Part shown: piece after piece, positions 7,111 through 51,053 of the stretch | How the letters are laid out: the number at the start of each line of letters is the position of its first letter | How positions within the stretch are numbered: the stretch's first letter is position 1 | NCBI GenBank assembly: GCA_963761305.1 | Contig: CAVXGK010000002.1 | Span: 2,368,001 to 2,432,000, forward strand | Source of the DNA: an uncultured Gemmatimonadaceae bacterium | GTDB taxonomy: Bacteria; Gemmatimonadota; Gemmatimonadetes; Gemmatimonadales; Gemmatimonadaceae | Reading direction: 5' to 3' | Length of the DNA stretch: 64,000 nucleotides | Program-made: the position numbers and the translations under genes | The notes under the pieces: generated by a model | Told to the model about the DNA's origin: nothing | The model's input: only the letters and a program-made list of their open reading frames with translations | Databases searched by the model: none

Positions 7111-8391
7111 GTGCGCTTTCCGGTCCAGCTCGGATATCGCGCGCTGGCGCAGATCGCCCGCGGCGCGGCGCTCGTCACGCCGAACAGCAACTCGAAGGTG
7201 CTCCGCTCGCTGCGCGCGCGACGCGGTATTCGCGCGCGTTACCGGCGATGGGCTGACGCGCACCGCGACGCAAATCGTCCGCTGCTCTGGATGCACGCCC
7301 CGTCCGTCGGCGAAGGATTGCAGGCGCGTCCGATCCTCGAGCTGGCGCGCTCGCGCCGTCCGGACGTTCAGATCGCCTACACGCACTTCTCGCCGAGCGC
7401 GGCGGCATTCGCCCGCTCGCTCGACGTGGACTTCGCCGACTATTTGCCGTTCGACACGCCCGGCGACGCCCGCGCCGCGCTCGACGCGCTCCGGCCCACG
7501 GCGCTCGTCTTTTCCAAGCTCGACGTCTGGCCGATGATCACGCGCGAGGCACGCGCGCGAGGCGTTCATCTGGGCCTCGTCAGCGCCACGCTCGCCCGCG
7601 GATCGTCCCGCCGTTCGCTCGGCGCAAGCGCGTTGCTGCACGACGCCTACGCGGCGCTCGACGTCGTCGGCGCGATCGACGAAGCCGACGCGGATCGACT
7701 CGTGCAGCTCGGCGTCCGCCCGCAGACGATCGTCGTCACCGGCGACACGCGCTACGACCAGGTCTGGAGTCGTGCGCAGCGCGTGGATCGGGAGGCGCCG
7801 ATGCTGGCGCGGCTCAGAGACGCGCGACCGACGCTCGTCGCCGGCTCGACGTGGCCACCCGACGAAGCGGTGCTGCTTCCCGCGTTCGAATCGCTGCGCC
7901 GCTCCGGAATCGACGTCCGTCTCGTCATCGCACCACACGAGCCGTCCGCACAGCACGTGGCGGAGCTGATCGCGTGGGCCGAGCGTGGCTCGCTACGCGG
8001 CGCTCGGCTCGACGACGCGACGAGCGACTCGGACGTCGTCGTGGTGGATCGCGTCGGAGTGCTCGGCGATCTCTACGCCGTCGCCGACGTCGCATTCGTG
8101 GGCGGCGGCTTTCACGCGGCCGGTTTGCACTCGGTGCTGGAGCCGGCGGCTTTCGGCGCGCCGGTGTTGTTCGGTCCGCGCTTTCAGAACAGCCGCGACG
8201 CGGCGCTTCTCGCGCAGCGCCACGGCGGCGCGGCGATCGGCGATACAGCTGAAGCGGAGCGGCGGTTGCGCTTCTGGCTCACGGATCCCGGCGGGCGCCG
8301 CGAGGCCGGTGACTTTGCGCGCGCCCTGGTCCGCAGTGGTGTCGGCGCCGCCGAACGATCCTTCGCGTTGGTCGATCGGCTCCTGCGGTAA
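7111..8391 (+). CDS. waaA: 3-deoxy-D-manno-octulosonic acid (Kdo) transferase
   Basis: LWMHAPSVGE, YLPFDTP, VTGDTRYD, AGSTW..DE, AFVGGGF..GLHSVLEPA; GTG start approximate. Confidence 0.9.
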   Translation: MRFPVQLGYRALAQIARGAALVTPNSNSKVLRSLRARRGIRARYRRWADAHRDANRPLLWMHAPSVGEGLQARPILELARSRRPDVQIAYTHFSPSAAAFARSLDVDFADYLPFDTPGDARAALDALRPTALVFSKLDVWPMITREARARGVHLGLVSATLARGSSRRSLGASALLHDAYAALDVVGAIDEADADRLVQLGVRPQTIVVTGDTRYDQVWSRAQRVDREAPMLARLRDARPTLVAGSTWPPDEAVLLPAFESLRRSGIDVRLVIAPHEPSAQHVAELIAWAERGSLRGARLDDATSDSDVVVVDRVGVLGDLYAVADVAFVGGGFHAAGLHSVLEPAAFGAPVLFGPRFQNSRDAALLAQRHGGAAIGDTAEAERRLRFWLTDPGGRREAGDFARALVRSGVGAAERSFALVDRLLR

Positions 8392-8524
8392 GGCCCTACC
8401 GCCGCGCGAGCCACCATCGCACAGCGGCTAAAGTTGAACGCAGATGCGTTGGTCGACCGGCTCCCTGCGGTAAGCTCCTAACCGCCGTGCGAGCCACGAT
8501 CGCGTAACGGCTAAAGTTGAACGC
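8365..8524 (+). repeat. imperfect tandem duplication (~78 bp x2) including the waaA 3' end
   Basis: GCGTTGGTCGA.CGGCTC..TGCGGTAAG...GGCTAAAGTTGAACGC at 8365-8441 and 8446-8524. Confidence 0.8.
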
Positions 8525-11231: not shown

Positions 11232-12836
<1,605 letters not shown>

Positions 12837-12881
12837 ACGGAGGGATGGTAATCGAGGGGCGTGGGTGGGTGGCCTGGGGGC

Positions 12882-12899
12882 TTGTGAAAAATATCACAA
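12882..12899. promoter_or_regulatory. palindromic operator TTGTGAAAAATATCACAA (Rex- or CRP-type box) upstream of atpA
   Basis: one mismatch to TTGTGAA-N4-TTCACAA, exact TGTGA-N6-TCACA; AT-rich island 45 bp upstream of the atpA start. Confidence 0.7.
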
Positions 12900-13035
12900 G
12901 CAGCCGATTCGAGCAAGCACGAGTTCTCGGCCGAGGCGGAACGCGGGTGCTAAATCGCTGTTCCCCCATGAATTACGGGCGGACCGGCGGATCGGGGCCA
13001 GACCGAGGCCGGCTTCGATCGGCGTCGGAGCAAAA

Positions 13036-13135
13036 TTCAACGCAGATGCCGCGGATCATGACTGCAATGCCGCAGATCAAACCCATTGGGTCATCCGTGG
13101 GAATTGTCGTTCTGATCTGCGGCATCTGCGTTGAA
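13036..13135. repeat. hairpin element of CGCAGAT-type 9-mer units
   Basis: TTCAACGCAGATGCCGCGGATCA (13036-13058) pairs 22/23 with 13113-13135; extra internal ATGCCGCAGATCA copy. Confidence 0.8.
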
Positions 13136-13323
13136 CTCTTCTTGCCCGGCAATCGTAGCCGACGGGGCGCAATGGAACGATCCCGGTCCCCGGGCAGATC
13201 GGTAGACCGCGACTAAGCCGACCATCCACGCACTCGTTTGCCTGCCCTCGCACTCAAACGATGACGCAATTACTCGGAGCGGCCCCAAACTACACGCTCA
13301 CTCGTCGCCCGCGCTGGCGCGCC

Positions 13324-13389
13324 GCCGTCAAAGCCGTCAAGCCGTCAAGCGCCCGCTGTTCACCCGTCCACCCGTCCACCTGTCCACCC
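13324..13389 (-). repeat. octamer arrays in the leader of the four-helix-bundle gene
   Basis: GCCGTCAA x3 then CGCTGTTCACCCGTCCACCCGTCCACCTGTCCACCC, ending 6 nt before the ATG. Confidence 0.85.
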
Positions 13390-13395
13390 ACCCCT

Positions 13396-13806
13396 ATGGC
13401 CGGCACAGTTCGCGACCTCAAAGTCTGGCAAGAAGCCGTCGCGCTTGCCGCGGAAACCGTTCGCTCGGCCCGACAATCGGCCAAACGCGAAACCAAAGTG
13501 GTCACGGACCACATCATGTTGTCCGCGTTGTCCGCCGCGGGCGCCATCGCCGACGGCTACGGCCGCTACACAGCGCCCGAACAGCGACAACTCTATCGCA
13601 CCGCCAAACGCGAGCTGCTCAAGCTCGAGACGCAACTCGCCATCGCGCGCCAAGCGGACCTCGTCTCGGCTCACACACACGCGGATCTCTCGGCGCGCAT
13701 CCAAGGAGTGAACCGCCTGCTCGGCGGCTACCTCGTGTACCTCGAGCGCCAACTGGAGGCCGCCAACCAAGCGCGTGAGTCGCCGGCCCAGCACCCACAA
13801 CAGTAG
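13396..13806 (+). CDS. four-helix-bundle protein (23S rRNA IVS / Avd-like family)
   Basis: RDLKVWQEAVALA, SALSAAGAIADGYGR, AKRELLKLETQLAIA; 136 aa. Confidence 0.85.
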   Translation: MAGTVRDLKVWQEAVALAAETVRSARQSAKRETKVVTDHIMLSALSAAGAIADGYGRYTAPEQRQLYRTAKRELLKLETQLAIARQADLVSAHTHADLSARIQGVNRLLGGYLVYLERQLEAANQARESPAQHPQQ

Positions 13807-13868
13807 ATGTCCGATTTGCCTGAACCCGACGACTCCGGCACTTGCCGCTCCTCAGCCTCGGCGCCGCT

Positions 13869-14687
13869 TTAACCCCGACTCCGCCCGTGTCCTTTCACGA
13901 ACCTGTCCACCAGATCCACCGTCCGCAGTCGCGTCAGCGATGCCGCGCGCGTTCCCACGACTCGCGAGGCCGTGCTCGCCAGGTGGGACGACGAGGCGAA
14001 CCCCAGTACGTTCGCCACATCTCGCAGATCATACCCGGGGTTCTTCGCCAGCTCTGCCGCCGCGATGATGCGCACGAGGTCGATGATGCGCTTCAAGTTC
14101 GGGGCGCCGCCGGCGGCGAAAGAACGGGAGAGATGCTCTCGCGTCACCTGCAGGACTTTGGCGAGCGACGACGTGCGCACCGGCCGCCCGGCGTGCGACA
14201 CGACGAAGCGCCACGCCGACGACTGAAGCGGCGAGTCGAGTGCGAGCGGCCGAGGGGGGCGCTCGAGCGCGCGCGCGAACCGCGACGAAAAGGCGAGTGG
14301 CTGCACCATTTCACGCGCGGCGGCTTCGTCCACGCCATCGACGAGCACGTCGGCAAATTCATACGCCGCGCACTGCGCGACCGCCGGACCGTCGGCAGTT
14401 CGCAGCGCCGCCAACCCGAAGAACGGAATGCTCGGATACTCGCGCGCGAGCGACGCTACGCGCCACGTGTCCTCGTGCGCGCTCCCGATGTCGACGACCG
14501 CGGCGTCGACGAGCTCGGACTTGAACACGGCTTGAAAGTCGGCGGCGGTGCGCGTGAGCAGGACGCGCGCGCGACGTCGTGGGAACGCCGCCTTCATCAA
14601 GTTCCGCGTTCGGTCGCGTTGCGCATACACGACGATCGCCGAAAGCGGCAGTCCGCTCTGCGTCGAGTGGTCCGCATGCATGTGCAT
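13869..14687 (-). CDS. AraC-type HTH regulator with degenerate receiver-like N-terminal domain
   Basis: LAKVLQVTREHLSRSF and VANVLGFASSSHL double HTH; N-terminal VDAAVVDI. Confidence 0.75.
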   Translation of the reverse strand: MHMHADHSTQSGLPLSAIVVYAQRDRTRNLMKAAFPRRRARVLLTRTAADFQAVFKSELVDAAVVDIGSAHEDTWRVASLAREYPSIPFFGLAALRTADGPAVAQCAAYEFADVLVDGVDEAAAREMVQPLAFSSRFARALERPPRPLALDSPLQSSAWRFVVSHAGRPVRTSSLAKVLQVTREHLSRSFAAGGAPNLKRIIDLVRIIAAAELAKNPGYDLRDVANVLGFASSSHLASTASRVVGTRAASLTRLRTVDLVDRFVKGHGRSRG

Positions 14688-14698
14688 CTGTCCGGGGC

Positions 14699-15527
14699 TC
14701 AGTTTCGCCGGTCGGTGCCGGCTCGGCGGTCGAACACCGCCTGAGCCTCTTCCCGGAAACGCTCGGTCGTGTCGCGGTCCGGCCCCTCGTCACTGTCGAG
14801 ATTCGGCCTGCCTTCGATGAACTGACGCACGATCGGATCAGCGGTGTTCCTGACCTCGGCCACCGTGCCGACCTGGCGAACTCGGCCTTCGTAGAGCATG
14901 GCGATGCGGCTGCCCACCGTGTAGGCGCTCCGCATGTCGTGCGTGATGACGATGCCTGTGACGCCGAGTTTCTCGCGCATGCGGATGATGAGCTGGTCGA
15001 TCACCGCGCTGGTGACCGGATCCAGTCCTGTCGTCGGCTCGTCATAGAGGAGGTACTTGGGCCGCAAAGCGATCGCGCGCGCGATACCCACGCGTTTGCG
15101 CATGCCGCCCGACAGCTCGGCTGGGTAGCGATCGACGACCGCCGGAAGATCCACCAGCTCGAGCGCTTCCATGACCCGTTGCTGGATCTCGTCCTCCGAA
15201 AGCTCCTGCTGTTTACGCAGGCCCATCGCCACGTTCTCGCCGACAGTGAACGAGTCAAAGAGCGCGGCGAACTGAAAGACGTAGCCGATGCGCGCCCGGA
15301 GCGCGTAGAGATCACGCCGGCTGAGGTGTGGCACATCGTGAGTCGTCGACGATGACCTCGCCCGAATCGGGCTCGAGCAGGCCGACGATGTGCTTGATGG
15401 CGACGGACTTTCCGGTGCCGGAATAGCCGATGATGACCATCGTTTCACCCTCGACGATGTCGAGCGTGAAGCCTTGCAGGACGTGCTTGGGTCCGAACGA
15501 TTTATAGACGTCGACGAGACGGATCAT
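14699..15527 (-). CDS. mlaF: ABC transporter ATP-binding protein, MlaF/Mkl family (apparent frameshift near 15340)
   Basis: GYSGTGKS in ORF 15312-15527; FQFAALFDS, LSGGMRKRVGIARA, LLYDEPTTGLDP, ITHD in ORF 14699-15448. Confidence 0.85.
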
Positions 15528-50822: not shown

Positions 50823-51053
50823 CGGGTGGACGGGTGGACGGGTGGACGGGTGGACGGGTGGACGGGTGGACGGGTGGACAGGTGGACGGGTGGACGGGTG
50901 AACAGCGAGACGTCTGACGTCTGACGTCAGACATCTGACGTCAGATTTCTCGAGTTGTGCCGTTGGCCTTGCCGGTCTACCGGTCTACCGGTCTACCGGT
51001 CCACCGGTCCACCGGTCCACCGGTCCACGTCCACCCGTCCACCCGTCCACCCG
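50823..51053. repeat. composite element: 10 forward octamers, heptamer hairpin, ~10 reverse octamers
   Basis: CGGGTGGA-type x10 (50823-50902), GACGTC(T/A)-type x6 (50909-50950), CCGGTCTA x3 / CCGGTCCA x4 / CCCGTCCA (50972-51053). Confidence 0.95.

Follow-up and report, generated by a model that had tools for sequence, protein, structure and literature searches.

The four-helix-bundle gene in our window (the whole 64,000-nt stretch of Gemmatimonadaceae DNA that we analysed) is very probably a vertically conserved PF05635 gene without repeat arms, fixed between an AraC-type regulator gene and atpA. In the same reading, the array in its leader is a late solo arm that likely comes from another paralog.

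We refer to the source genome (5.2 Mb; contigs C1 and C2) as G000, to genomes of relatives by other G numbers and to compared loci by L numbers. The ortholog set comprises 51 loci: L001 to L029, including that of G000, and L080 to L102 minus the duplicate L090. Loci L061 to L079 were excluded as duplicates. The features are collected in Table 1.

Table 1. Position of the resident gene, its neighbours, the repeats of its leader and the distant partner of the leader array
Feature	Position	Strand	Basis or remark
atpA, head of atpA-atpG-atpD-atpC, divergent neighbour	11232..12836	-	named from translations; synteny
Rex-operator-like palindrome upstream of atpA	12882..12899		consensus likeness; predates the four-helix-bundle gene
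Hairpin element, AACGCAGAT family, stem about 13036-13135	13003..13195		folding; alignment with relatives
GCCGTCAA x3.2 run	13324..13350	+	reverse complement of TTGACGGC left arm (paralog in G017, G022, G024); second right-arm-type trace
Solo C-rich array, GTCCACCC x about 4, 'right arm' orientation	13354..13389	+	GGTGGACN octamer family; loop-side GGTGAACAGCG junction on - strand
Resident four-helix-bundle gene, 136 aa	13396..13806	+	PF05635 / TIGR02436 HMMs; arm-less clade in part of Gemmatimonadaceae
AraC-type HTH regulator gene, convergent neighbour	13869..14687	-	PF12833 above cut-off
Gene-less nested inverted pair	50823..51051		G-rich octamer arm 50823-50904; C-rich octamer arm 50972-51051

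The sequence-only reading had assigned the gene to a four-helix-bundle family, and the assignment stands: the 136-aa protein exceeds the curated cut-offs of both PF05635 (64.5 vs 33.8 bits) and TIGR02436 (53.4 vs 24 bits). TIGR02436 also matches every one of the 32 aligned orthologs (E ≤ 0.01). Matches in the ESM Atlas fall into PF05635 clusters only. At E ≤ 1e-20 there are 805 matching protein clusters, which may include non-orthologs. The only solved relative returned by a profile search is 2GSC, a weak match (E 5e-5). The suggested likeness to Avd did not survive, with scores far below the cut-offs of NF033474 (16.4 vs 80 bits) and PF22296 (14.5 vs 40 bits). A longer reading frame (ATG at 13261, 181 aa) was dropped because the orthologs align from 13396. 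The gene is oriented against the surrounding operon.

The position of the gene is conserved. In all 51 distinct orthologs atpA lies divergently upstream, and the AraC-type gene follows in 24/29 and 23/23 ortholog loci. Beyond the orthologs the gene is sparse: in our phylum sample (E ≤ 1e-20) it occurs in 9/53 genomes of its own family and in 0/197 genomes of other families. We matched the AraC-type protein in nine of ten searched genomes, and in six of them atpA is directly next to it. These six AraC-atpA loci contain no four-helix-bundle match at E ≤ 1; the site is empty. Since one of the six belongs to another family, the comparison makes a gain of the gene at this site the simpler reading.

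Selection acts on the protein as well. Against G000, dN/dS is about 0.02-0.12 in 12 ortholog pairs, with dS near saturation; for armed paralogs (below) it is 0.13-0.29 in four pairs. Across 32 orthologs 30 columns are invariant. These values indicate that the resident gene is under purifying selection.

A gene so firmly placed might instead be kept for its position, either through co-regulation with the ATP synthase operon by the Rex-like box or because it shields atpA from read-through, and the protein itself may then matter little. The fixed position in 51/51 loci agrees with this idea, as does the box, which resembles the Rex operator consensus in the relevant passage of PMC5355995 and is found in 29/29 and 23/23 ortholog loci. 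The genome also has a rex gene. However, the box is present in 5/6 loci without the four-helix-bundle gene. It therefore belongs to atpA, and we dropped it as a feature of the four-helix-bundle gene. Moreover, low dN/dS and the invariant columns demonstrate that the protein itself is selected. We regard retention for position as extremely improbable.

The genome has three Rex-operator-like palindromes: the one before atpA (12882-12899), G000:C2:379346 and G000:C2:555557. Of the latter two, one stands before an unidentified gene and one beside rex itself. Just past the stop region of atpC, window positions 8365-8524 hold an 83-nt direct duplication (87% match) with AACGCAGAT. An ABC ATPase gene at window positions 14699-15527 and the four-helix-bundle paralogs G000:C1:31056 and G000:C1:1510584 appear frameshifted, and several of the genes at 23-30 kb and 52-58 kb of the window were called in pieces. 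Such frameshifts and fragmented calls may be assembly indel errors.

The 400 bp upstream of the gene carry traces of three repeat families, and what had been described there was largely recovered. Read on the opposite strand, 13354-13389 is identical to 50872-50907 (36/36, no extension possible on either side), and it ends 6 nt before the ATG at 13396, both as claimed. The reported threefold GCCGTCAA is present as the run in Table 1. Further octamer variants had been placed at about 12987 and 13193; degenerate octamers lie at 12978-12993 and 13200-13209, the second a few bases off. The upstream hairpin also proved real: a stem at about 13036-13135 folds with -63.4 kcal/mol (z -9.5, 0/200 shuffles as good). 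The element around it is absent from this site in four aligned close relatives and is 81% identical over 196 nt to the sequence that immediately precedes a GxxExxY gene at G000:C1:1120087. Folding of 13300-13400 is no better than that of shuffles (z +1.4); the array and the GCCGTCAA run therefore do not give the leader a stable fold. Both of these short arrays have the right-arm orientation, which is what a host gene would show if a cassette remnant lay ahead of it.

The distant partner of the array lies in the gene-less inverted pair at 50823-51051, inside which GACGTCT heptamers run from 50909 to 50945. This heptamer is the arm unit of the paralogs G000:C2:78536 and C1:31056.

To judge the 36-nt match, the octamer family as a whole has to be considered. 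The genome holds 145 arrays of at least three GGTGGACN-type units. An exact stretch of at least 36 nt is common to an array and a distant one in 66/145 cases, and in 13/145 such a stretch includes at least three off-period positions. The full 36-mer occurs at two sites only, its last 28 nt at three, and the junction of GGTGAACA with GCG ends 5/145 arrays. Hence the match, put forward for its unit variant and terminal motif, is real but ordinary for its repeat family. The identity probably reflects a common subfamily junction and a few frequent unit variants; direct copying between 50872 and 13354 is superfluous as an explanation, though it may have occurred. As first posed, the finding is an ordinary one: a dispersed repeat ahead of a gene.

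The placement of the array is just as common. By our own rough gene calls (4083 genes), 26/145 arrays are C-rich and end no more than 15 nt from a predicted start, a placement that the leader array thus shares with 25 other predicted genes; for G-rich arrays the count is 0. Arrays that begin no more than 15 nt from a stop are mostly G-rich (39, and 17 C-rich). Counts made without a gene caller give 22 C-rich vs 4 G-rich arrays at starts and 44 G-rich vs 22 C-rich at stops. If arrays of at least two units are counted and merged, there are 217, and neighbouring pairs no more than 1.5 kb apart face inward in 33 cases and outward in three. We envisage that gene-less hairpins land at gene boundaries and may then lose one arm, while the number of units would shift by slippage.

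Most orthologs have nothing of the kind. A short-unit array stands upstream in 7/51 orthologs and is missing in 44/51. The octamer is found in three (L001, L004, L005), a GAGACCA/GGTCTCT hairpin in L002, L003 and L006, and AGGACCG in L024. Hence the orthologs mostly lack the repeats, which is one of the outcomes that the sequence-only reading had named as refuting it. The array likely landed long after the gene. Six of the seven closest orthologs (L001-L006) carry some array here, compared with 18/593 divergent spacers that hold the octamer family, although these seven are close kin. Because their share exceeds that of divergent spacers generally, arrays may land here preferentially, as at a hotspot, or some selection may act on the site.

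Outside the seven closest orthologs, 0/44 have a Shine-Dalgarno-like word and 38/44 have a T at -8. The pattern hints at a -10 box some 7 nt ahead of the start codon and at a transcript that lacks a leader. In the seven-ortholog subclade, arrays would have arrived between promoter and ATG. Lineage-specific repeat runs of other units also occur between the gene and the AraC-type gene in L010, L011, L014 and L016, and in the empty spacer of L142.

Most other members of the family look different. PF05635 matches ten times in the genome, at nine loci, since two matches belong to one frameshifted gene. Each of the eight loci besides the resident gene has an array on its upstream side and the reverse complement of that array on its downstream side; seven different units occur among them. 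We quantified this with an arm score: the 260 nt after a gene were reverse-complemented and aligned locally with the 330 nt before it, and the best alignment was scored. Among 4082 control genes of the genome the median is 19 and the 99th percentile 30, a value that 43/4082 reach. The eight paralogs score 58-129, whereas the resident gene scores 16, below the control median.

A score of at least 30 is reached by 26/29 non-orthologous family loci in relatives (31 loci minus one with a short flank and one own copy). In other phyla it is reached by 27/36 family loci (38 minus two with short flanks), to whose base composition the control is not matched. Most other members thus sit between a G/purine-rich left arm and a right arm that is its reverse complement, and each has a unit of its own. 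Only 1/51 orthologs reaches 30 (L002, score 52, where a gene-less hairpin stands on either side), and at the resident gene we found no remnant of an arm. The proposals that protein and repeat form one system, and that repeats are enriched near four-helix-bundle genes, are consequently supported for the family, as arms around its members, but not for the resident gene and most of its orthologs.

The resident gene is likely a domesticated cassette gene, to judge from its relatives. An ancestral cassette would have inserted at this site, which is empty in related genomes, and lost its arms, while the gene would have been kept by the host. In a quick tree the orthologs form one group (SH-aLRT 91), within which analysis the nearest armed relative is not resolved.

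The octamer array likely belongs with a different paralog, as the distribution of both suggests. On the other contig, the gene at G000:C1:1510584 lies between (CCGGTGGA)24 and (GTCCACCG)4. Octamer triples occur in eight of 32 genomes, and homologs of this paralog with at least 74% identity occur in 6/8 of the octamer-bearing genomes and 0/24 of the others. The close homologs include L151-L154, and five of six have GGTGGAC arms. In G015 the homolog has another octamer in its arms, though the genome is rich in GGTGGACN. All 21 octamer matches of G004 are on one contig, together with a truncated homolog that has the octamer upstream; this contig may be misbinned. In G024 (61% complete) we found no close homolog. 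Because the genomes are close kin, the co-occurrence amounts to no more than one event or two, and simple linkage would be enough to account for the co-inheritance of octamer and paralog. In G017 the octamer-armed cassette occupies another site, and the matching site of G000 is empty. More distant homologs (58-60% identity; L159, L165, L166) have TTGACGGC left arms.

Alternatively, the resident protein could itself bind or spread the octamer repeat, with the leader array as its own autoregulatory site, as for RAYT and REP. The array abuts the ATG in G000, L004 and L005, a search of the genome (93% complete) gave no Y1 transposase, and single copy, vertical descent and purifying selection are RAYT-like as RAYTs are portrayed in the pertinent sections of PMC5581495. 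However, the octamer family is missing from 21 of the 29 genomes, among the 32, that carry the four-helix-bundle gene. Where the proteins are 95-97% identical (L002, L003, L006), a heptamer stands in place of the octamer, and L007, 90% identical, has no array at all. The placement before a start is widespread, and the octamer forms the true arms of another paralog. The array as this gene's own partner, which the sequence-only reading had favoured, is very unlikely.

Other arm-bearing loci were seen along the way. At G000:C2:793963-794177 there is a gene-less CAGCATC-type hairpin where G015 and G019 (L037, L038) have a GGTCTCT-armed cassette; one spacer has been reused by different repeats. Two small ORFs that look alike (77 and 88 aa, at G000:C1:1277347-1277580 and G000:C2:3395411-3395677) both have DPIPALK near the start, and each is enclosed by long inverted arms (scores 128 and 85). 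They are possibly a further armed cassette with different cargo. C1:1727483 and C1:1728370 have another arm family in common. TIGR04256 (GxxExxY) matches six loci, including G000:C1:1120087, where AACGCAGAT hairpins lie on both sides of the gene; three of the six reach an arm score of 30.

The loss of arms goes together with changes in the protein. We compared the 51 orthologs with 73 other family members in one alignment, from which one short row was dropped. The orthologs keep D7-L8-x-V10-W11-Q12, E32, G54 and R57. Five residues that are nearly invariant elsewhere are gone: R42 (1/51 orthologs vs 68/73 other members), N50 (1/51 vs 70/73), G72 (0/51 vs 68/73), S73 (0/51 vs 69/73) and E76 (1/51 vs 73/73). 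Three more are lost in part, namely Q39 (21/51 vs 73/73), S46 (14/51 vs 70/73) and E53 (20/51 vs 73/73). Conversely, the orthologs have gained near-invariant residues of their own: Y58, Q63, Y67, R72, Y115 and Q119. Because family-invariant residues are replaced, the cassette function has likely been lost, and the protein probably has a new RNA, DNA or protein partner.

Such a protein could be a host-captured controller of the armed cassettes that is independent of their units, and its leader would then sample whichever repeat is active. It may, for example, enter the oligomers of the cassette proteins as an inactive subunit and dampen them, or it may bind hairpins broadly. An inactive competitor might well keep the N-terminal DLKVWQEA and IAxG-xR and lose the invariant core, as observed. 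The solved member of the family, which our protein matches at E 5e-5, is a homopentamer according to the passages of PMC4990558 that deal with it. Three repeat families meet in the leader, and the genomes compared have 3-12 family matches each. Against this, 44/51 orthologs carry no upstream short-unit array, genomes of other families have armed paralogs without the resident gene, and hetero-oligomers with armed paralogs are conjecture. We consider a captured controller unlikely.

A broader version is bolder. Here the host would have domesticated the cargo of a transposase-free, repeat-armed cassette of wide distribution as an inactive or re-targeted subunit, which controls cassettes or reads gene-less hairpins, and the replaced R42, N50, G72, S73 and E76 would mark the functional core of PF05635. 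We offer it as a rather doubtful proposal. Whatever the function, the search for the residues on which the armed proteins rely should begin with those that disappeared along with the arms. The arm-less clade is a natural negative control for cassette proteins and for the question of S23p-type function, and the octamer with G000:C1:1510584 is a matched pair of protein and repeat for a binding comparison.

How does the resident gene compare with known systems? With Avd of diversity-generating retroelements it shares a distant similarity. We rejected this identity: the only RVT_1 match of the genome is on the other contig (G000:C1:821086), and the neighbours of the resident gene are atpA and the AraC-type gene. 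The RVT_1 locus (G000:C1:821086-824212) adjoins a transposase-like ORF with short inverted ends.

S23p, or 23S_rRNA_IVP (PF05635, TIGR02436; XCC0516, PDB 2GSC), is the same protein family by HMM, and the profile matches 2GSC weakly. ORF-bearing 23S rRNA intervening sequences carry S23p-family proteins, as stated in the part of PMC4990558 devoted to them. Unlike these, the resident gene lies outside an rRNA gene and lacks terminal inverted repeats, and unlike its S23p relatives it is a single fixed copy with family-invariant residues replaced. An rRNA intervening sequence was rejected: the gene neighbours protein genes, there is no Rfam match within 12800-13900, and its arm score is that of an arm-less gene.

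RAYTs and their REPs and REPINs are likewise single-copy, vertically inherited and likely derived from a selfish element, with dispersed hairpins, in the account that the corresponding sections of PMC5581495 give. Unlike RAYTs, the resident protein has no HUH domain, and in most orthologs repeats do not flank the gene. RAYT membership was rejected, with no Y1 Pfam match in the protein, PF01797 in 0/1 genome and upstream arrays confined to the seven orthologs above.

The octamer arrays have close counterparts elsewhere. GGGAATC in Xanthomonas and GGGGA(C/T)T in Nostoc form oriented intergenic 7-mer arrays, and the sections of PMC4692102 on their placement put the G-rich strand just past stops and the complement just ahead of starts, with convergent pairs frequent. 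TAACTGA arrays of Beggiatoaceae show a start-codon bias in the corresponding section of PMC4679880. The placement rule in these accounts is like that of the G000 arrays, whose unit, unlike theirs, is an octamer and whose host is a member of the Gemmatimonadaceae. The term 'helix bundle' has 0 occurrences in the two papers; therefore neither ties its arrays to this protein family under that name. Literature searches over mostly open-access texts turned up no publication that ties PF05635 proteins to flanking arrays or describes the clade.

A further comparison is with the armed four-helix-bundle cassette. The eight paralogs fit it, and the leader arrays are arm units of such cassettes. Unlike them, the resident gene is arm-less and immobile; it behaves like a gene of the host that has a leftover arm ahead of it. 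Its score of 16, the single ortholog that reaches 30, the same site in 51/51 orthologs and the lost core residues all set it apart from an armed cassette. Repeats such as the one in the leader are of a familiar type; the resident clade, diverged and arm-less, is a new variation within its family.
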